Source of the DNA: Planctomycetota bacterium
Lineage (GTDB): Bacteria > Planctomycetota > Brocadiia > SM23-32
Length of the DNA: 39,810 nt
Direction of reading: 5' to 3'
Assembly: GCA_030628375.1 (NCBI GenBank)
Contig: DAOVRD010000001.1
Coordinates: forward strand, 1-39,810
Made by a program: the position numbers and the translations under genes. Under the pieces are notes generated by a model. It ran no database searches. It was given only the letters and a program-made list of their open reading frames with translations, and was not told the origin of the DNA. Shown in pieces: positions 14,813 to 24,073 of the stretch. How positions within the stretch are numbered: the first letter of the stretch is position 1; each line of letters starts with the position of its first letter.

Positions 14813-14964
14813 CCGCGTCCCCCTGCAAGCGGACACCTTCGGCGGCGCGCGCCATCAAGTGCGCTTCACGGCGTTACCCGGGTCCGCGGGGCGTAGAATC
14901 GGGGGCGGCGTGGGTGTCTGATTGACACGGCTCAAGATGCGAGCGCAGGACGAGGAGGTGGGCT

Positions 14965-15561
14965 ATGTGGGAGCCAGTTGACGCACGGTTTTATGTTAAG
15001 CGACATCCCGTGGACATCGTGGATATCGGCGGGGTTGGCAATGACGGCCGCTTAACTCGCGCGTTGTTCGAAGCGTTGAATGCAGTGACTCAGTTACACC
15101 TCTGCGGGACGCCGGGCGACTTCCTGCAAGTAATCAGCCAGGGCCAGGATGCAGCGCCGCACATGCTAATCTGTTGCCATGGCGACGACAATGGACTTGT
15201 CTTCGGGGAGTTCGGCCCGGGAATCGACGCGTCGATGCTCGTGGAAGGTAGCATGCCACCAGAATGTATTGCGGAGAACATCCACCTGCCAGGCTGCGTA
15301 GTAATCAATGACGGGTGCGCCTGTGGTGAGAAGGCGATGGCTGAGGCATTCATGTCAGGGAATCTGAAGGCATACATGGGAACCGTCGATCCCGTGCCGG
15401 AACACCGAGCGGACCTCATGTTCTTAGCGCATTTCTTCTATAAGCTGTTCCGCACCGGCTGTTCGGAGCGAGAAGCCTGGGCGCAGGCGGCGTCCTACGA
15501 TAGCGAGAGCCGGTTGTGGGTGTTCTGGGATGAGGACGGCTGTCACCGCCTGGCCGACTGA
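14965..15561 (+). CDS. Stand-alone mini CHAT/caspase-like domain protein (hypothetical)
   Basis: 198-aa ORF with GAGGAGG RBS in a lower-G+C patch. PHMLICCHGDDNG (His-Gly after a beta-strand), LPGCVVINDGCACGEKA (Cys after a hydrophobic strand) and SGNLKAYMGTVDPVPEHRADLMFLAHFFYKLFRTGCSEREAWAQA follow the CHAT/caspase-fold order of motifs. Confidence 0.55.
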   Translation: MWEPVDARFYVKRHPVDIVDIGGVGNDGRLTRALFEALNAVTQLHLCGTPGDFLQVISQGQDAAPHMLICCHGDDNGLVFGEFGPGIDASMLVEGSMPPECIAENIHLPGCVVINDGCACGEKAMAEAFMSGNLKAYMGTVDPVPEHRADLMFLAHFFYKLFRTGCSEREAWAQAASYDSESRLWVFWDEDGCHRLAD

Positions 15562-15625
15562 TCCCCCCTGAGACTGGCACCTACCGCCCTCACGCATTGC
15601 CACCCGGGGCCGCAGGGCGCTCGCG

Positions 15626-16456
15626 TCACATTCGGGACCCGCCGCCCACATAGACAAGCTGTCCGGTGATCCAACGGGCCTGCTCAGATGCAACAAGCAC
15701 AACCGCGTCTGCTATGTCTTGGGGCTGGCCGATCCGACCCATCGGACAAGCTGCAGACTCACGCTCAACGGCTTCAGCCCCGTAGCCCCCGGTCTGGACG
15801 GGCCCCGGAGAAACGACATTCACTGTGACGCCGTAGGGGCCAAGCTCCTTGGCGGCAACCCGGCTAATGCTCTCCATCGCATACTTGCTGGCCCCATACC
15901 AGACGCTTCCGCCAAAGGCGTCTGCCGCATCAGTGCTCACGTTGATGATACGTCCCCATCTGGCAGCGCGTTCGATGTGCCGCCGCCCATACTCCTGTAT
16001 CATCAGGGCTACCGCGCGCGTGTTCACCGCGAAATGCCTGTCCATGCTCGCGGCGTTTGCCTCCAAGACCCGGCTGGGGTACTCACAGTGAGCGGCATTG
16101 TTCACCAGCACGTCCACTGCCCCAAAGGCGGATTCGGCGCGGTCGAAAAGCAGAGGGATGTTGGCTGGATCCGCAAGGTCGGTTTCCCATGCCTCAGCGC
16201 TGCCGCCTGCATCGCGGATCGATTTCACAACATGATCGGCAGACTTCGCCCGCATAGCAGCATAAAGAGCTTCGGCCGATTCGCTAAGCCCCCGAGCGAC
16301 ATCCTCGCCCCAACCGGTGTCCTGTGGTCGCACGCGCAGATAGGTGAGGAACAGCTTCGCGCCTTCAGCCGCCAGACCCTTTGCGACGGCCGCACCGATC
16401 CCGTGGTTCGCCCCGGTCACCAAAGCGACTCTGCCCTGGAGTCCTGTATCCATCAT
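15626..16456 (-). CDS. Short-chain dehydrogenase/reductase (SDR)
   Basis: VALVTGANHGIGAA (TGxxxGxG) and YGASKYA (YxxxK). The start overlaps the upstream stop (ATGA at 16453-16456). Confidence 0.9.
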   Translation of the reverse strand: MMDTGLQGRVALVTGANHGIGAAVAKGLAAEGAKLFLTYLRVRPQDTGWGEDVARGLSESAEALYAAMRAKSADHVVKSIRDAGGSAEAWETDLADPANIPLLFDRAESAFGAVDVLVNNAAHCEYPSRVLEANAASMDRHFAVNTRAVALMIQEYGRRHIERAARWGRIINVSTDAADAFGGSVWYGASKYAMESISRVAAKELGPYGVTVNVVSPGPVQTGGYGAEAVERESAACPMGRIGQPQDIADAVVLVASEQARWITGQLVYVGGGSRM

Positions 16457-16956
16457 CTGTTCTCCCGAATGGCGATCAGACGCTCAAGGTCCTCCTTGTC
16501 CCCCGCGCGGTTGGATGCCTTCTTGCTGATGATCAAATCCTCAAGACCGATGAAGTTCACATCCAGATCGGCCATCGTCGCTCGCACACGGCGCTGGTAA
16601 CAGTCTTCGAACGTCCCATCCGAAACCCAAAGGAGGACCTCCATTCCAAAGGGCGGGTCACCTATCGTGGCCACCTCGTCCTTCTGTCTCACCACAAATG
16701 GCGGCTGCCCTATCTGGAGAAGATCCTGCACCAGGACCATCTGTGGCGTAAGAGTCCGGTCGTCAACGCCAAGAGCACGAAGGGCCTGCACGAGCTTCTC
16801 TGCCGTTTCGGGCTCACGGGGGATCCAGACGTCCAGGTCCTTGGGATCGCGGCGGTAACCATAATACACCACGGCATGGCCGCCGGTAACCAGATAACGA
16901 ACGCCTGCAGCGTTCAGGAGAGCCAGAAACCGCCGCAAGTCCCTTGAGACCTCCAT
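16453..16956 (-). CDS. Nucleotidyltransferase-fold protein (DUF6036/AbiEii-like minimal NTase; assignment tentative)
   Basis: 167 aa with GGGAGGG RBS. N-terminal LLNAAGVRYLVTGGHAVVYYGYRRDPKDLDVWI and C-terminal FIGLEDLIISKKASNRAGDKEDLERL match the pattern of small NTase-fold proteins. Confidence 0.6.
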   Translation of the reverse strand: MEVSRDLRRFLALLNAAGVRYLVTGGHAVVYYGYRRDPKDLDVWIPREPETAEKLVQALRALGVDDRTLTPQMVLVQDLLQIGQPPFVVRQKDEVATIGDPPFGMEVLLWVSDGTFEDCYQRRVRATMADLDVNFIGLEDLIISKKASNRAGDKEDLERLIAIRENR

Positions 16957-16977
16957 GCAGACCCTCCCGCCGTTCGG

Positions 16978-17643
16978 CTATTGATTATCTGGTTTCTGCA
17001 TCACCAGGCATGTATAGCCCTTCGAGTCCTTGTGGACCGGCATGACGTCTTCGCACACGATGAAACGACGGAACTCATAACGTAGTTCCTGCGTGTCGAA
17101 CTGGTGGTGAGGGACGCCCTTCTCGTGACCTTCGAGAGGAACGTACGTATGCGGTTCCACTTCCACTGCCTTCGGCGCACCCGGCCGCGGGGGACGTCGC
17201 TCCGTCGCAACCGTCAAGAACAGAAGCCCCCCCTCCCGAAGCACCCGGTGGATCTCGGCGACCGTCTGCCGGATCTGGCGGATGCGATGATGATTGACGA
17301 CCTGGATGCACAACATCGCGTCGAAAGAGGCGTCCGGCCAGCGAATGTGCGTCATGTCACCCGCCTTCAGGTCAGCAGACAGGTTCTCCCCCGCCAGCCA
17401 CTCGTCCGCGAGGCGAATTGCCGTAGGCGCGATGTCCTGTCCGTGCATCAGGTACCCGCGCCGGGCAAAGAAGACCAGATGTCTCCCATCGCCACAGCCA
17501 AGGTCAAGTATGGCGCGCACATTCCGATCGCGGAAGACGCGATCGAGGGCCTGGCAGTCTTCATGTTGGCTGGCCTTGCGATATCCGCCCGAAGGCCGCT
17601 TTCGATAGGCCGCCTCCCATCCGGTTGCGTCTTCTCCCGTCAT
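16978..17643 (-). CDS. Class I SAM-dependent methyltransferase
   Basis: ATG at 17643 (AAGAAGGAA upstream); the track start at 17664 is a TTG. Motif I is ILDLGCGDGRH. Confidence 0.85.
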   Translation of the reverse strand: MTGEDATGWEAAYRKRPSGGYRKASQHEDCQALDRVFRDRNVRAILDLGCGDGRHLVFFARRGYLMHGQDIAPTAIRLADEWLAGENLSADLKAGDMTHIRWPDASFDAMLCIQVVNHHRIRQIRQTVAEIHRVLREGGLLFLTVATERRPPRPGAPKAVEVEPHTYVPLEGHEKGVPHHQFDTQELRYEFRRFIVCEDVMPVHKDSKGYTCLVMQKPDNQ

Positions 17644-17785
17644 GATTTCCTTCTTAGAACCCAACCTTGCGCCTCAGGCGCCGCGTGGCCGTCGGCCGGA
17701 GCGTCGGGCTTGAGTGGTCAATGCCAGTCCAGCGTACGATCACCAGCCCCGTTCACTGCGTCCGGCACGTACGCCTCTCGGCTGG

Positions 17786-18574
17786 TTATGCATCACGCAG
17801 CACGCATGCCAGACTGCCGACGTGCTGGCGGTCGTGGTAGATCACGCGGAAGCCCGCTCGCCCCAACTCCTCCACCAACGCCTGCGGTTTCAGATGCCTT
17901 CTATGGGGCAGATACCATCTGCCGCTGATTCGTACCGCATCTGGGAAGTCCCCGGGCGCCTCATCCAGTGGGCTATACACGATGCCCGTCTTGAGGTCTA
18001 TGAGCCTATTTCCATAGCGACTGTACGCAGTTCCTGTCGAGGCATCCAGGACAGGCCCGTTCTCCCGGACCAGGGCTTCATGCTCCGCATCCATCACGGC
18101 GCTGCTGACGAGGTAGTACCCCTGGCTTTTCAAGCGTGCGCGGACCGCAGAGAAGACCCTCCCACGATCCTCGTCAAAGACAATGCACTGAAGGCAGTAG
18201 CTATCGACGATCATGTCATACTTCTTGCCCTCGGGGGGCAAGTCGCACACGTCCATGACCTCGTAGTGGATGTCCAGGCCTCGTTGGGATGCAAACTGTC
18301 TTGCCATCTCGATGGCGGCAGGGACCAAGTCGACGGCGTCGACACGGAAGCCTCTTTCCGCCAGGAAGCAGGCATCTGGACCGGTGCCACACCCGTAGTC
18401 CAGCACGGTAGGCTCCGCCGTCTGAAAACTCAGTTTGGGCAGGACTGCTTCTAAGAATGGCCGTGAGCAGAAGTTCTCGAATCCAACTCCACCATGGATC
18501 TCAGCCCAAGCTGTCTTGCCCTCGGCCCGGATCCTATCGTAGCCGCGGACGTGTTCTGGATAGTAGTACTTCAC
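17786..18574 (-). CDS. Class I SAM-dependent methyltransferase
   Basis: In-frame GTG at 18574 (AGGAGAG 8 nt upstream) within track ORF 17786-18673. Motif I is VLDYGCGTGPDACFLAERGFRVDAVD. Confidence 0.8.
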   Translation of the reverse strand: MKYYYPEHVRGYDRIRAEGKTAWAEIHGGVGFENFCSRPFLEAVLPKLSFQTAEPTVLDYGCGTGPDACFLAERGFRVDAVDLVPAAIEMARQFASQRGLDIHYEVMDVCDLPPEGKKYDMIVDSYCLQCIVFDEDRGRVFSAVRARLKSQGYYLVSSAVMDAEHEALVRENGPVLDASTGTAYSRYGNRLIDLKTGIVYSPLDEAPGDFPDAVRISGRWYLPHRRHLKPQALVEELGRAGFRVIYHDRQHVGSLACVLRDA

Positions 18575-18608
18575 GGTATCGCTCTCCTGGTTCGCCTGGG
18601 CAGGGAAC

Positions 18609-19397
18609 TCACCGGCACGGCCGGTCCGTGTCCGGCGGACGCTGCTGTTGCACGTCCGCCTTCCGACCCACAATCAGCAAGTACGCGGGCAGCTTGTCCA
18701 GGTTCGCCTTCATCCAGAACTCGTCCTCTACGTGCTCCCCGTGCTCATCGACTTCCACCAGGGCGCAACCGGCGTCCAGCACAGCCTGGATGTGATCGGC
18801 GACCGTCCAGTGGAACTCAAATTGAGGCTGGCCTTCGTCAGACCGATACTCGTAAGGCCCGCGGTTGAAATACCGGTGGCGTGGCGCGGGACCGTCGCTG
18901 TCGAGCCACATCCGCCTGATCGGGTGGTAGTCGTTGACGACAAGAATGCCTCCCGGCCTCAGCACACGCACGGCCTCCGCGTAGTACTTCCGAACATCGG
19001 AGACCCAGACCGACATGTGGCCACCCGTGTAGACGAGGTCGAAGGTGCTATCCCCCACACTGCTCAGGTCGGTAACGTCGGCCCTCAAGAAGGTCACCTC
19101 CAGCCCGAGAGCGCGTGCCCTCTCCTCGGCGATCTCCAGTCGCCTCTCGGATATGTCCACCGAGGTGACTTTGCCGCCCATTCCGGCCAGGGCGAAGACG
19201 ACCTCGTTGTCCCCGCTGCCCAGCACGCAGACATCCTTTCCCTGGACGTCCGTCAGGAACGGCATTTCGGCGGGGGAGAGGACCAGTGTCGGGTCCCGAT
19301 GACACCTCATCCAGAGGCCCCTCTTATCCTCCCTCTCCTTCCACCACTGGGCCGAAGCATTCCAGGCGGCCCGATTTGCCTCATGCATCTCGTTCAT
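18609..19397 (-). CDS. Class I SAM-dependent methyltransferase
   Basis: ATG at 19397 (MNEMHEANRAAW) within track ORF 18609-19640. Motif I is VCVLGSGDNEVVFALAGMGGKVTSVD, with LRPGGILVV downstream. Confidence 0.8.
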   Translation of the reverse strand: MNEMHEANRAAWNASAQWWKEREDKRGLWMRCHRDPTLVLSPAEMPFLTDVQGKDVCVLGSGDNEVVFALAGMGGKVTSVDISERRLEIAEERARALGLEVTFLRADVTDLSSVGDSTFDLVYTGGHMSVWVSDVRKYYAEAVRVLRPGGILVVNDYHPIRRMWLDSDGPAPRHRYFNRGPYEYRSDEGQPQFEFHWTVADHIQAVLDAGCALVEVDEHGEHVEDEFWMKANLDKLPAYLLIVGRKADVQQQRPPDTDRPCR

Positions 19398-19561
19398 TTC
19401 ACTCGTCCGGCTATTGATTGCCTCGTTTCCGCATAAGACCCGCTGAGTTCCATCATTCAACGCCTGCCGGCCGAACCGCCGAGCTTGAGTCGTCAACGCC
19501 TTCCAGCGGCGCCGCTCACGCGGGCAGTTTGCCGCTTGGCCATGCAACCGCGGCTGTAAGT

Positions 19562-19951
19562 TCAGTAGTCCCTGATGACCATGCCTACCGAAGGCTGCAT
19601 CCCGAACCTCGAGTAGAAAGGCTGCAATGCAGGATAGCATGTCAGGTCAATACAGGGAATGCCCCGCAGCTTCTCAAGAATCCGCCTCATCAATCCGGTC
19701 CCGATACCTTGATTCTGGTATTCGGGGAGCACTTCGAGAAGGTAGATGAAGGCCTGCTGAACATGGTCCGTGAGCGCCACAGCGAAACCCACGACTCGAT
19801 GCTCGTCGGGGTCCACCGCGACGATCTTGACGCCACTGTTCGCGAGAATCTTGAGATGCGTTTCAGGGTCATGGGGCCTCTTCCACCCCACAAAGAATCC
19901 CTGCAGCATGCCGGGCGTAATCGCGTCACTCGTGTCCGTGTATTCGATCAT
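19562..19951 (-). CDS. GNAT family N-acetyltransferase
   Basis: 129 aa: IYLLEVLPEYQNQGIGTGLMRRILEKL (motif A). The start overlaps the upstream stop (ATGA at 19948-19951). Confidence 0.85.
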   Translation of the reverse strand: MIEYTDTSDAITPGMLQGFFVGWKRPHDPETHLKILANSGVKIVAVDPDEHRVVGFAVALTDHVQQAFIYLLEVLPEYQNQGIGTGLMRRILEKLRGIPCIDLTCYPALQPFYSRFGMQPSVGMVIRDY

Positions 19952-20538
19952 TGCCTATCGTCCGGAACGAGAAGTTCGGCAACGAGTGCCTTTCCTTGGG
20001 CCAACTCCGCCGGGGGGAACTCGCCGCCCCGGATCATGTCAACAAGTTCCTGCGTGCTGTCTAACGCTGCGGCCAGTTGCGAGCCCGAAATGAGACCGAT
20101 GCCAAGAGCCATTCCCAGGTCGCTCAGGTCCAGCACGCTGTGCGTGCGGAGGTCTTCCTGAACGATCACGTCGCAGAAAAGGTCGGTGAAGAGCCAACAG
20201 CCAAGCGTCTCCTCGTGGCAAATGCTGCCAATGTGAACGTACCACGGCCAGTCCTCTCCGAGATTTGGGAAGCAGGCATTCTCGATGATGGCCCACTTCT
20301 TTCGTGGCAAGTAGTAGAGGAGCGACTTCGGGCCATAGCCGATCCCTGGATGGGGCCTCTCCACAATCAACTCGTCGCTGATCTGCCACCAACGCCAGTC
20401 CTCGTCCGGCGTCTCCCGGGATGCCACGACTTTCTGCTGGATGTGCGCGGAGACAACTTCGGGCGGATTGACCTTGAATCCCCGCCCTTCGCCATGCTCC
20501 TTGCCCAACCTTCGCCACACGACAAGGGTCCTTTCCAA
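19948..20538 (-). CDS. DUF402-like protein (FomD/Ntdp-type nucleoside phosphatase fold; tentative)
   Basis: 196 aa with a TTG start at 20538 and GGAGG 6 nt upstream. WYVHIGSICHEE...LFTDLFCDVIVQEDLRTHSVLDLSDL resembles the DUF402 acidic motif. Confidence 0.6.
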   Translation of the reverse strand: MERTLVVWRRLGKEHGEGRGFKVNPPEVVSAHIQQKVVASRETPDEDWRWWQISDELIVERPHPGIGYGPKSLLYYLPRKKWAIIENACFPNLGEDWPWYVHIGSICHEETLGCWLFTDLFCDVIVQEDLRTHSVLDLSDLGMALGIGLISGSQLAAALDSTQELVDMIRGGEFPPAELAQGKALVAELLVPDDRQ

Positions 20539-20609
20539 GGCTTGCCTCCGTTCCGCATGCGCTCTCCGTGCAATCGGGATTGATCATTCAACGCCAGGGG
20601 ACCGAACCG

Positions 20610-21344
20610 TCAGGCTTGAGGCGGTTGAAAGTGCGGTTGCTGGCCACTCTTGTATCCCCAGACGAGGCAACCTCGCTTGGTCACCGTAAGCGGCGCGCCC
20701 AAACGACGGGCGGCCTCCTGGCACTCACCTGCGTCCATTCCTCTGCCGAATAGATACTCCGCCACGGCCTCCACATCCGGCAGATGGATCATGGGAGCGT
20801 CCCACGCCTCCACCTCGACGTTCGCGAAGAACCTGGCGACAAGGTCCGGCGCATCCTCGGCGTCGAACGTCGAAGGTCGTGTGGGCATCACTTCGGCCAA
20901 CTCCGGATCGTTGTGCCGGCTGGGGGCCGCCGCAACGAAGAGCCCACCGGCACGCAGAACACGGCAACTCTCGCTGAGAGCCTTCTCGGGCTCCGACAGA
21001 TGGTAAAGCACGTACAGCGCGGCGACCGCTCCGAACCAGCCGGTTCGAAACGGAAGCGATGATGCGTCGCCGAGGACTCGCGACCCCGGCACGGCCGACA
21101 GCATCGTTGCGGAGTTGTCAAGCCCCACGACTTGAATCCCTTGATCTTGCAGGAGCCGGCACAATCTGCCTTCGCCACATCCAACGTCCAGGACGGGCTG
21201 CAAGCCCTCCCTCACGATTCGTTCTGCGACGGATTCATGAACATCGCCCTTGCCGTACTTGCGGGGGCATTCGCTGCCAACGCGGAAGCGCTCGGGATTC
21301 GTGTCATAATCTGCTGGAGCCGCTTGCGCTCGTTCTTCATCCAT
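20610..21344 (-). CDS. Class I SAM-dependent methyltransferase
   Basis: ATG at 21344 (MDEERAQ); the track start at 21377 is a TTG without an RBS. Motif I is VLDVGCGEGRLCRLLQDQGIQVVGLD, with LRAGGLFV downstream. Confidence 0.8.
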   Translation of the reverse strand: MDEERAQAAPADYDTNPERFRVGSECPRKYGKGDVHESVAERIVREGLQPVLDVGCGEGRLCRLLQDQGIQVVGLDNSATMLSAVPGSRVLGDASSLPFRTGWFGAVAALYVLYHLSEPEKALSESCRVLRAGGLFVAAAPSRHNDPELAEVMPTRPSTFDAEDAPDLVARFFANVEVEAWDAPMIHLPDVEAVAEYLFGRGMDAGECQEAARRLGAPLTVTKRGCLVWGYKSGQQPHFQPPQA

Positions 21345-21582
21345 TCTTGTCTGGCTCACACGAAGCGTAGTCGCCAACTAGCGCGCCAACCGCCGGTCGG
21401 TCGGACACCGAACCCGAGGAGCTTGAAACGTAGTCTGGCAGATCCTCGTACTGCCACATTCGCCGGCACTCGCTCTCGGCGTCCGTCGCCTTGCCCGCCT
21501 CGAAGCGTATTGTAACCGCGCCGTAGAGGTCTTCCAAGATAAGTCGAGTCAGGAATCTCAACAGTCTCGCGCCTTCCCGCAT
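21337..21582 (-). CDS. Small DUF2292 (YezD)-like protein
   Basis: LILEDLYGAVTIRFEAGKATDAESECRRMW resembles the DUF2292 core (YGSV-x-I-x-x-x-x-G-K-V). Start is ATG 21582, or 21621 as an alternative. It overlaps the next methyltransferase start by 8 nt. Confidence 0.5.
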   Translation of the reverse strand: MREGARLLRFLTRLILEDLYGAVTIRFEAGKATDAESECRRMWQYEDLPDYVSSSSGSVSDRPAVGALVGDYASCEPDKNG

Positions 21583-21655
21583 TCGTGCGTCCTGGCGATG
21601 AGGGGCAGGGGGGCCAGACATGCTGTGCCTGCGCCAGGCGCTTAATAAAGAAAGC

Positions 21656-21684
21656 TTGACTAAGCCGAACCAGCAGATTAAGAT
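21656..21684 (+). promoter_or_regulatory. Candidate sigma70-type promoter upstream of the Fic remnant
   Basis: TTGACT (21656-21661), 17 nt spacer, TAAGAT (21679-21684), in an AT-rich patch. Hexamer match only. Confidence 0.45.
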
Positions 21685-21728
21685 GTCTTCACTAACGCCT
21701 CACGCTGGGAAAGGCGGCCTGACCAGCG

Positions 21729-21875
21729 ATGGCACGGGTCATCGGCTCCTGCTGCCAGATGAATGTCGAAGGAGAGACGGTCCGCGCCTTCATCCCGCGT
21801 CCTTTGCCTCCCGAGAAGCCGCCCCTTCGCATCGAGGGCGCGCTGGGCGAGCGCCCCGCCGAGAGTGACCGTTAG
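21729..21875 (+). pseudogene. Fic-family protein, N-terminal remnant (48 codons)
   Basis: Manual translation: MARVIGSCCQMNVEGETVRAFIPRPLPPEKPPLRIEGALGERPAESDR*. The AF(I/V)PxPLPP...L segment is typical of the Fic_N region. The TAG stop lies inside GTTAGGC at 21871-21877. Confidence 0.6.
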
Positions 21876-22333
21876 GCCGCATCACGTACATCCGTCACAA
21901 CACACAAGAAAAGTGCGCGGACATGAAGCAAAACACCGTCATTCACATCCTGCTTGGCATGGCAGTTCTGGCAGCCATTCCACTACTTTACCTTCTGCTG
22001 GCTCCTCACGGCCAGACCAAGCTCTCGCCTTCGCAGTGGGCCATGTTCGGTGGACTGGCCCTGGCCTTAGTGCTGGCAGTCTTCGTTTCGAGCCTGCTGC
22101 GCCGGTTGAGAGGCCCAGTTCCGCCGCAGCTTCTATCGCCTGCGGACATCAGGTTTTGCGTTCTGGTGACAGTAGTGACGTGTGCTCTCGTATTCTTCGG
22201 AGTCTGGGCATGCGGGCCGCTCGGTTCGTTGGCCATGATGCTTGTACCGCTATCATTCACGTTCCGCTTCCGCAGGCCACGCGTGCAACGAGACGATCAG
22301 TAGAGTTAGCTGAGGAGACCCATGCCGCCTAAC
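21871..22333. mobile_element. 463-bp lower-G+C insert bounded by 12-bp imperfect terminal inverted repeats, carrying one small membrane-protein ORF
   Basis: The left end GTTAGGCCGCAT (21871-21882) matches the reverse complement of the right end ATGCCGCCTAAC (22322-22333) at 11 of 12 positions. The ends coincide exactly with where the two Fic remnants stop and resume. No transposase is present. Confidence 0.5.
21923..22303 (+). CDS. Small integral membrane protein (126 aa, about 4 predicted helices), unknown function
   Basis: ORF inside the insert with hydrophobic segments ILLGMAVLAAIPLLYLLL, FGGLALALVLAVFVSSLL, FCVLVTVVTCALVFFGVWA and LAMMLVPLSF. Confidence 0.6.
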   Translation: MKQNTVIHILLGMAVLAAIPLLYLLLAPHGQTKLSPSQWAMFGGLALALVLAVFVSSLLRRLRGPVPPQLLSPADIRFCVLVTVVTCALVFFGVWACGPLGSLAMMLVPLSFTFRFRRPRVQRDDQ

Positions 22334-22671
22334 ACGGCGCTGGAGCCAACAGCCGCGCCGTTTCTCCGTTGCCGAGCGGCGTGGTCACCGACGAAGAGAC
22401 CGGACAGGTCGTCGTAAACGATGCGGTCGCCTCGGTCACGGCCATCAGGTTGTTCGATCTCCTGCCGGAGCATCGCATCGTCACCCTGTCGAACGCGGCG
22501 GAGCTTCTCAAGGCTTCGAAGCCCACAGCCAGCAAAGCCATTGACGCGCTGACCTCGGCGGGCGTGCTGGGCGAGATCACCGGCAGACGCCGGGACCGCG
22601 TCTTCGCCTACCGGGCCTACCTCGACGTGCTTGCCGAGGACACCGAAGTGGAACGCCCCCAGGGAGGGTAG
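22334..22671 (+). pseudogene. Fic-family protein, C-terminal winged-helix remnant
   Basis: The frame opens right after the TAA inside GCCTAAC. LFDLLPEHRIVTLSNAAELLKASKPTASKAIDALTSAGVLGEITGRRRDRVFAYRAYLDVL is the typical C-terminal wHTH of Fic/DOC proteins. No HxFx(D/E)GNGRxxR catalytic motif lies between the two remnants. Confidence 0.6.
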
Positions 22672-22706
22672 GGGCGAAGCCGGGAACGGGCGCAGTTTGT
22701 CCCGCG

Positions 22707-22733
22707 TATCCTGCCTATCCTGTACATCCTGTT
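22707..22733. repeat. Three ATCCTG hexamers at 9-bp periodicity between convergent genes
   Basis: TATCCTGCC TATCCTGTA CATCCTGTT, with ATCCTG at 22708, 22717 and 22726. Confidence 0.8.
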
Positions 22734-22781
22734 AAGGTCGTTGCATTCCCGGCCATGCCATGCCCTCCTTCCGGTTGTCGG

Positions 22782-23756
22782 TCAGGGCTCGCTGTCTATG
22801 CGCGCCACGTAGTCCTTGACGCGCATCACATTCTCCGGCGGCGTCTCGTAGGGCAGGGCGCCGGTGCCCAGACACACGTTGTCCCTACCGGCCGTCAGAT
22901 TCAGGATGCGATCAACTTCGGCACGGATCTCGTCCCACGTCCCCCTGGCGATCACTTCGGGAGACGTGTTCACGCGGACCGTCACCTCGGTCCGATCCCA
23001 AACGCGCTCCATGAATGCCTGCTGGTCCGTCTCGGTCGGACAGATGACGTAGCCGGTGCCCGTCTCCAGGATCGCGTCCAGGATCGGCGTCGTGTCCCCG
23101 CCGATGATGCAGGGAACCGGATGCCCCACGATCGAGGCCGCCCCCTTCATGATGCTCTTCAGGGGCGGCAGCTCCACCTGCCTGAACTGCCCCGGCGACA
23201 GAAGCGGAGGCGCGGCTCCCGACTCGAAGAACGCGATGTCCAGACCGCGACGGCGGATCTCCTGGCAGAACGGCATCTGCCCGTCCACCAGATGCTCGAG
23301 CGCCCTTATCGTGCCGTCGGGATTGAGCAGCACCTCGGCGAGCAGGACGTCGGCCCCCAGCAGGTTCATGGCTATCGAGAACGGGCCGCTCAGAGGAATG
23401 CGCACGTCCGCCCCGGGGAACTCCCGCGCCAGGCACACGCCCACCTCAATCACCATGGGAATGCGCCCGGCCACCCGGGGGTCCGGCGCCTCCAGCGTCG
23501 CCAGCTCTTCGACACTGCGACACACGTGACGCGTGATGGCCGGGATGCCGCTGCCGCCCGGCTCGTCAACGGGAGCGCCGTAGGCCTCCGCCTCCAGGTT
23601 GTATATGTCTATGCCGACGACGACGGGCGAGTGACCGTACAGGCGGTAGGCTTCGGCATGGCCCAGGAACATCAGGTCCGCATCCCGCGACACCTCCCAC
23701 GGGCTGCGGTCTATCAACTGGGCTGCGTGTTCGTAGACGGACGGCGCGAAATCCAT
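22782..23756 (-). CDS. Uroporphyrinogen decarboxylase (URO-D)/MtaA-CmuA-like family protein
   Basis: ATG at 23756 (GGGGAGGG upstream; ATG at 23762 also possible) within track ORF 22782-23906. The length and sequence (YGHSPVVVGIDIYNLEAEAYG...FFESGAAPPLLSP...GHPVPCIIGGDTTPIL) fit the URO-D fold family. Confidence 0.7.
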   Translation of the reverse strand: MDFAPSVYEHAAQLIDRSPWEVSRDADLMFLGHAEAYRLYGHSPVVVGIDIYNLEAEAYGAPVDEPGGSGIPAITRHVCRSVEELATLEAPDPRVAGRIPMVIEVGVCLAREFPGADVRIPLSGPFSIAMNLLGADVLLAEVLLNPDGTIRALEHLVDGQMPFCQEIRRRGLDIAFFESGAAPPLLSPGQFRQVELPPLKSIMKGAASIVGHPVPCIIGGDTTPILDAILETGTGYVICPTETDQQAFMERVWDRTEVTVRVNTSPEVIARGTWDEIRAEVDRILNLTAGRDNVCLGTGALPYETPPENVMRVKDYVARIDSEP

Positions 23757-23839
23757 CCGCATCCCTCCCCTTGGAGTCCCCGGAAGCAGCCGTAGGATAA
23801 TGCCGATCCCACGGACAGTCAACGTGACGGGCGGCTGCT

Positions 23840-23867
23840 GTAGGGGCACGGCGCGCCGTGCCCTTAC
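23840..23867. repeat. REP-like element: GTAG + 20-bp perfect palindrome (intergenic copy)
   Basis: GTAGGGGCACGGCGCGCCGTGCCCTTAC, in the divergent region between the URO-D-like and DUF1284 genes. Confidence 0.85.
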
Positions 23868-24073
23868 GGCTCGGCACCACGCACCACCAGCGCAATGCAA
23901 GAACACAACACGACTTTCTTACCGATACCTGCGTCCCGGAGTCCGGCCTCTCCGATTGCCGCGCGCGGGCGACCATCGGGCGTTTGCCTGCGCGGCGCCC
24001 ATTGCTTATGATCTTTCCGGAAGCGGCGCACGGTCGTCGCAGTTCCTTCCTTCCCTTTGCGGCGGGCAGAGCT

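Follow-up and report, generated by a model that had tools for sequence, protein, structure and literature searches.

How did the two ends of a Fic gene come to lie on either side of a small membrane-protein gene? The question is raised by positions 21729 to 22671 of a 39,810-nucleotide stretch of DNA from a Planctomycetota bacterium (contig DAOVRD010000001.1; the whole stretch is called the window below). The genome is of a deep-sea, planctomycete type, and its assembly is a fragmented metagenome-assembled genome (MAG) of 412 contigs and 3.9 Mb, 86% complete. A first, sequence-only reading saw here what is left of the two ends of a Fic gene on either side of an insert with terminal inverted repeats, noted that the repeats match the core sites of integrons, and proposed that a cassette-like element, or one resembling a miniature inverted-repeat transposable element (MITE), had landed in the gene and deleted part of it. 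Our analysis supports the first half of this picture and suggests another origin for the second: the locus is probably a dead Fic gene whose core was replaced, in a one-off illegitimate event, by a small foreign gene, the likeness to integron and MITE ends being coincidental. The features discussed are collected in Table 1.

Two remnants of one Fic gene

A profile built from nine intact homologues of 390 to 430 aa was run with hmmsearch against all six frames of 21500-22800. Two pieces were recovered, one at 21729-21854 corresponding to profile positions 1-42 (47 bits, E = 8e-17) and the other at 22402-22653 corresponding to positions 304-387 (111-112 bits, E = 2e-36), and no Fic-like sequence for positions 43-303 was found in any of the six frames of this interval. 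Both pieces match one kind of protein, in the right order and orientation, and are therefore the remnants of one Fic gene, as had been proposed from the letters alone. The event had also been called a replacement and not a simple insertion, and this description holds: nothing Fic-like lies between the remnants, and alignment to intact homologues places both in the same protein and shows that the residues between them are gone. The catalytic core is indeed missing, the loss amounting to about 261 aa (residues ~43-303, ~780 bp) and not to the roughly 230 aa first estimated.

In the intact homologues Fic_N occupies aa 42-119 and Fic aa 131-233, and both Pfam domains fall within the missing part, which in these proteins comprises the Fic_N inhibitory-helix domain, the HPFxDGNGR catalytic core and a linker; the motifs SSQIEGT and HPFLDGNGRIGR are present in these relatives. 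No open reading frame (ORF) of 21729-22671 matches Pfam Fic (PF02661), and Fic_N (PF13784) with its SxxxEG inhibitory helix is absent, the N remnant ending at residue 42 with no Pfam match of its own; Pfam alone is uninformative on pieces as short as these remnants. The N-terminal piece had been described as a Fic_N-like fragment, a label that does not fit, since its residues 1-42 precede that domain.

The N remnant is 64% identical (tblastn) to the Fic gene of locus L005, and its 48-codon ORF ends, as first read, at a TAG inside GTTAGGC. The C remnant corresponds to the end of 390-430-codon frames in 22 other genomes (up to 66% identity; 60 related genomes searched) and gives a weak match to the NCBIfam family SoFic (NF046030; positions 282-359 of 361). 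The 31 relatives, from 9 genomes and 22 metagenomes, are all full-length apart from cuts at contig ends and two frameshifts. Both remnants score within the ranges of held-out intact relatives (47 bits against 41-58 for the N remnant, 111-112 bits against 108-123 for the C remnant), which argues that the event is recent or that the pieces are still constrained. Judged from these comparisons, the event is private to the source lineage and probably young.

On the left, clear homology extends to 21854 and plausible homology, with an A-E pair in register, to ~21866, which places the left arm of the inverted repeat 5-17 bp from the left homology breakpoint. On the right, a 112-codon frame opens at the TAA at 22330-22332 and closes at 22671 (G+C content at third codon positions, GC3, of 0.83), and the C-terminal fragment had been thought to resume directly after that TAA; the open frame does begin there, but recognisable Fic homology restarts only at ~22371-22402, 40-70 bp past the end of the right arm at 22333. 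In the DNA alignment a Fic-like GCCGAGCGGC at 22371-22380 is offset by two bases, apparently in another frame, which suggests a possible frameshift near 22400 in the C remnant. The best intact relative is 72% identical in the C part, and none of the sequences found is a parental allele; since the best relative is no closer than this, the left breakpoint can be placed to within ~5-17 bp and the right one to within 40-70 bp.

With its 412 contigs and 86% completeness, the source MAG is of the kind in which a chimera might be expected, the membrane gene having been mis-joined to the Fic ends during metagenome assembly. The arrangement is, however, base-for-base identical in three assemblies, namely the window, the independent NCBI MAG contig JAGMDX010000308.1 and a Logan contig of SRR13892593, which originates from the Site-F cold seep in the South China Sea (PMC9357000). 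Both junctions are included in this identity, and they hold no repeat able to mislead an assembler, their sequences having no repeated copy in the 3.9-Mb assembly (blastn and tblastn). We regard a mis-join as extremely unlikely. Gene callers annotated all three ORFs of the locus in the NCBI record. The same searches found no paralogues of the remnants or of the insert in the genome itself, and its three further Fic domains are unrelated to the remnants at this level. Farther along, JAGMDX010000308.1 equals the window up to ~27207 and diverges completely from 27208, which points to a rearrangement at strain level or else to a mis-join in one of these assemblies.

Table 1. Features of the Fic-remnant locus, in window coordinates
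Feature	Position	Strand	Details
Fic promoter/operator-like region	21642..21695	+	TTAATAAAG 21642-21650; -35 TTGACT 21656-21661; -10 TAAGAT 21679-21684; CTTCACTAA 21687-21695
N-terminal Fic remnant	21729..21875	+	48-codon ORF, TAG stop 21873-21875; homology to residues 1-42, possibly to ~21866
Left arm of 11/12 inverted repeat, GTTAGGCCGCAT	21871..21882		holds TAG 21873-21875
126-aa membrane-protein gene	21923..22303	+	DNA homology to relatives 21895-22313
Right arm of inverted repeat, ATGCCGCCTAAC	22322..22333		19 nt after membrane-gene stop; holds TAA 22330-22332
G+C-rich hairpin	22335..22360	+	CGGCGCTGG-agccaacag-CCGCGCCG, then TTTCTCC; 8-bp stem, 9-nt loop
C-terminal Fic remnant, winged-helix part	22371..22671	+	in-frame homology 22402-22653; stop 22669-22671

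The filler and the likeness of its ends to mobile elements

The lost core has been replaced by ~0.5 kb of filler that is compositionally foreign. G+C is 57.7% in the 463-bp insert and averages 65.0% over the window, where no more than 3.7% of segments of this length are as low, and GC3 is 0.66 in the membrane gene compared with 0.79-0.83 in the Fic remnants. The lower G+C had been noticed before, as had the coding capacity of the insert, which consists of a single 126-aa protein with four predicted membrane helices (residues 2-29, 36-63, 73-95 and 101-116; low confidence, with a model pLDDT, the predicted local distance difference test score, of 62). No family in Pfam or NCBIfam matches this protein above threshold, DUF2231 and DUF4233 each reaching a sub-threshold 14 bits. 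Its relatives form 52 representative clusters among 1.84 billion proteins; four clusters show 48-64% identity to it in alignment A1, and the two relatives with named genome records come from Planctomycetota MAGs. The gene is found in at least three other contexts, none of them near Fic sequence, for example between genes for a CarboxypepD_reg protein and an extracytoplasmic function (ECF) sigma factor, or beside a NucS_C-like gene and a DUF1501 gene. Judged by these homologues, the predicted ORF is a genuine gene of a small uncharacterised family. The 7-mers GTTAGGC and GCCTAAC were not found in the flanks of its relatives. The sequence TAGGCCGCA..GTACAT lies ~58 nt upstream of the membrane-gene start in the related locus L052, as it does in the window (4 of 500 shuffles score as well), which hints that the left repeat arm may be native upstream sequence of the imported gene.

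The two arms are complementary at 11 of 12 positions, and to this extent the description of the insert as bounded by terminal inverted repeats stands; that the match exceeds chance does not, the same 1.3 kb holding three 12-nt inverted repeats at 92% and many 11-nt repeats at 91%. The two 7-mers had further been called textbook matches to the R' and R'' sites of attC. Both sequences are present, but because the arms are complementary they represent one coincidence and not two independent pieces of evidence, and the core 7-mers occur 32 times in the window, counting both strands. The repeat could also be seen as the 12-bp termini of a MITE or a decayed insertion sequence (IS) that brought the membrane gene along as cargo and, on inserting, removed neighbouring Fic DNA. 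Its position close to both breakpoints would suit such an element, but the right arm lies 40-70 bp inside non-Fic filler and not at the breakpoint, and repeats of equal quality arise by chance about as often as just described. Moreover, the insert is present in a single copy, with no second one in the 3.9-Mb assembly, its termini occur nowhere else in the window, the flanks ...GAGTGACC and ACGGCGCT... share no direct repeat that would represent a target-site duplication, and no frame contains a transposase remnant. Nor did the relatives and metagenomes of the collections searched yield another copy that combines these termini with a target duplication. The MITE-like element proposed at the outset is thus barely credible, being single-copy, devoid of a target duplication and bounded by a repeat at chance level.

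More can be said for an integron cassette. Such a cassette would span 21872-22360 and carry an attC-like site of unusually small size; an integron integrase, either supplied in trans or lost since, would have inserted it at a secondary G↓TT site (cut after the G) in the Fic gene, and a later recombination would have deleted the core. The R''-like GCCTAAC and the R'-like GTTAGGC are perfectly complementary, with pairing that extends to 11 of 12 positions, the putative site stands at the 3' end of the ORF, the flanks are short, and G↓TT is found at both putative junctions (21871/21872 and 22360/22361). When the ends are joined as in a circle cut at G↓TT, the resulting sequence ATGCCGCCTAAC-A-hairpin-G↓TTAGGCCGCAT forms a 50-nt stem-loop of -16.4 kcal/mol on the top strand and -18.0 kcal/mol on the bottom strand. 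The hairpin at 22335-22360 has by itself a dG of -8.2 kcal/mol (DNA), within the top 0.84% of 26-nt windows; it received no call in a terminator scan, and it could serve the imported gene as a weak terminator or else form the inner stem of this hypothetical circular-junction hairpin. Insertion of cassettes at secondary sites is documented (Cury et al. 2016, PMC4889954), and within the same class another family has 12 genomes that encode integron integrases.

What tells against a cassette is the size of the site and its isolation. Joining the ends leaves 26 nt between the R boxes, too few for the R-UCS-L-VTS organisation of attC (UCS, unpaired central spacer), an architecture with two spacers, an L box and a variable terminal structure (VTS) of 20-100 nt (PMC4889954). 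As they lie in the window, the two 7-mers are 449 bp apart with the ORF between them and make one site only if the insert ends are joined; a scan of the window for attC-type pairs (RYYYAAC...GTTRRRY, 40-130 bp apart, both strands) found no R''..R' pair at attC spacing on either strand. Across the genome, at spacings of 12-135 bp, 88 complementary pairs were counted against 160 in a shuffled genome, 6 pairs folded well against 2 in the shuffle, and no cluster of candidate attC pairs was present. Folding of the junction regions is no stronger than that of shuffled sequences (z = -1.0 to +1.25; z = -1.0 around 22335-22360), and a scan of 20500-24000 against Rfam, a collection that does not include the attC model of IntegronFinder, gave no match. 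No integron integrase (TIGR02249) was found in the genome at its 86% completeness, the best match scoring 75 bits against a cut-off of 265, and none was found in 31 genomes of the same family. The integrase-bearing family of the class is at ~43% G+C, and its attC sites were set aside as not comparable. An intact site with these R boxes was absent from 132 genomes of the class in a pattern search. The relatives of the membrane gene are ordinary chromosomal genes without such ends, the IntegronFinder authors regard isolated single attC matches as false positives (PMC4889954), the 780-bp loss is left unexplained by simple insertion, and the model was devised after the data had been seen.

The searches for further copies of the termini or of the membrane ORF, and for an integrase or attC arrays, which the sequence-only reading had itself suggested, therefore came back empty: the insert is single-copy in the genome, its homologues lack these ends, and neither an integrase nor an array was found. 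Together with folds at chance level, this is the outcome that reading had named as speaking against a cassette-like element with integron core ends. Overall, we judge an integron cassette with a later deletion of the Fic core to be quite unlikely. More doubtful still is the bolder proposal that the insert is a mobile single-gene cassette with a miniature attC-like site of ~40 bp, captured at a secondary G↓TT in an integron-less lineage, which would imply a minimal attC smaller than the known size range allows, or else the work of another recombinase. The resemblance of the insert ends to integron sites is most likely a coincidence.

One other integrase candidate was rejected. A 111-bit partial match in a same-genus genome (contig G001:C357, 2616 bp, locus L080) does not represent an integron integrase; it is a tyrosine recombinase next to an IS91-like transposase on an AT-rich contig of that MAG, which by its composition is probably contamination or a foreign element.

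Promoter and genomic setting

The near-consensus promoter that had been described at 21656-21684 is still in place. A promoter scan returned TTGACT-17-TAAGAT at these positions, followed by a Shine-Dalgarno-like AAAGGCGG at ~21710-21717, and the surrounding block is conserved upstream of 21 intact homologues in the form TAGTAAAG-N4-CTTGACTAAC-N~13-TAAGATATCTTTACTA, then AAAGGAGG and the ATG. The outer 8-mers of this consensus block are exact reverse complements of each other; compared with the family consensus, each outer arm in the window carries a single change, and so does the ribosome-binding site. Upstream of the Fic genes in loci L005-L014 and L054-L074, nested palindromes are seen, the outer one TAGTAAAG...CTTTACTA and the inner one ACTAAC...GTTAGG, and they flank a -35 element CTTGACT and a -10 element TAAGAT. 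From its sequence, the promoter block is operator-like, and the cognate protein might perhaps be the Fic protein itself, acting through its C-terminal winged helix. A conserved palindromic promoter of this kind suggests autoregulation via that domain, which can be tested.

The promoter, the ribosome-binding site and the start codon of the Fic gene are all kept and the membrane gene is co-oriented with them; the Fic promoter therefore probably now transcribes the 48-codon stub, the membrane gene and the winged-helix fragment. One might go further and see here a mini-operon that has been exapted, the Fic promoter/operator driving the membrane gene and the winged-helix fragment (96-100 aa, starting at GTG 22381 or TTG 22369) serving as its repressor. 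The retention of promoter, operator-like inverted repeat, ribosome-binding site and start codon would agree with this, as would the annotation of all three ORFs by gene callers and the state of the C fragment, an open frame of 112 codons that has a GC3 of 0.83 and scores within the range of intact relatives. Nevertheless, neither GTG 22381 nor TTG 22369 is preceded by a Shine-Dalgarno sequence, each operator arm is one base off the family consensus, the case consists of one sequence, identical in three assemblies, in which the lack of decay can equally be put down to a recent event, and DNA binding by the winged-helix domain is itself presumed. We consider an exapted mini-operon rather unlikely.

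The neighbourhood of the locus is variable. The URO-D gene beside it is kept in same-genus genomes at 77-78% DNA identity, with other genes next to it there, which places the locus in a variable region; URO-D being the sole shared gene, an empty site could not be recovered from same-genus synteny. On the other side, the Fic locus borders a lower-G+C run of accessory enzymes. Genes at 14926-21377 have a GC3 of 0.68-0.77, compared with 0.81-0.92 for most other genes of the window, and the minus-strand run at 16453-21377 encodes a nucleotidyltransferase (NTase)-fold protein, four class I methyltransferases, a GNAT protein and a DUF402-like protein. This run has the look of an accessory island that was acquired and that stops at the Fic remnant, and the pair scan of the window found no attC-like sites between the genes of the 14926-21377 stretch. 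The upstream ORF at 21337-21621 was considered as a conserved partner of Fic and dropped, one short match, in L008, being all that was found.

Two repeats lie on the far side of the remnant. The interval that separates the Fic remnant from URO-D has ATCCTG three times at 22690-22750. This motif forms the core of a dispersed repeat (consensus ...ATCCTGtAtATCCTGTACATCCTGTTAAGGcCGTTGTATT...) with 59 matches in 49 contigs of the genome, 14 of the matches lying no more than 150 nt from a contig end. Given this distribution, it is an intergenic repeat found across the genome, as opposed to a binding array specific to this locus. Upstream of URO-D, 23838-23868 is a palindromic sequence of ~30 nt resembling repetitive extragenic palindromic (REP) elements; it recurs at dozens of sites in the same-genus genome G003, on both strands and at 94-100% identity, and also has matches in genomes G001 and G002.

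Origin of the replacement and its likeness to known systems

The event is best explained as a one-off replacement of the Fic core by foreign DNA. The ancestor was a class II SoFic-like AMP-transferase of ~390-430 aa, from which the ~780 bp encoding residues ~43-303 were lost; in their place came ~0.5 kb of foreign DNA holding the complete 126-aa gene together with ~50 bp of leader belonging to it and a short hairpin on its 3' side. The mechanism was most likely a single illegitimate replacement, of an end-joining or microhomology type, during DNA uptake or repair, and would have been neither site-specific nor transpositional. The 12-bp inverted repeat and the match to integron cores would then be coincidence, or native flanks of the imported gene. 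Two points weigh against this explanation. The ORF is directed toward the R''-like site, G↓TT stands at both junctions and the joined ends give a 50-nt stem-loop, each of them improbable alone and all fitting a cassette inserted at a secondary site; and the uncertainty in the breakpoints given above hides any microhomology at the junctions.

The locus is a cautionary case, in that a tidy single-gene replacement within a toxin-like gene can mimic a cassette, and a match to the integron-core 7-mers combined with a 12-bp inverted repeat carries little weight unless accompanied by an attC fold, an array or an integrase. It also brings to light a small, uncharacterised family of four-helix membrane proteins. 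Were a cassette origin true after all, the locus would bear on the minimum size of attC and on the spread of cassettes outside integrons.

Among known systems, the remnants belong by homology with the class II SoFic-type AMP-transferases: their first 42 and last ~85 residues are homologous to intact members encoded in the same bacterial family, with 60-72% identity in the C part, and the upstream promoter block of intact members is also present at the remnant locus. Unlike those members, the remnant lacks both Pfam domains, the SxxxEG helix and the HPFxDGNGR loop, and it is not a working member of the family. With integron cassettes the insert shares a short single-ORF unit, GTTRRRY at the 5' edge and a complementary RYYYAAC just 3' of the ORF, as well as a G↓TT at each putative junction and the formation of a hairpin by the joined ends. 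It differs from them in the 26 nt between its R boxes, as against R-UCS-L-VTS sites with a VTS of 20-100 nt (PMC4889954), and in the 780-bp deletion that accompanied insertion here. It also has no integrase and no array, no second attC such as a cluster of attC sites lacking an integrase (CALIN, at least two clustered sites) would have, and no related site in the 132 genomes. The locus has most in common with replacement-indel pseudogenes produced by illegitimate recombination, being a single event confined to its lineage, in a variable accessory region of lower G+C, with no recombinase, target duplication or other copies and with the flanks of the gene intact. Compared with these, the filler is unusually tidy, consisting of one complete, co-oriented gene with minimal flanks, and it is this tidiness that gives the locus its cassette-like look.

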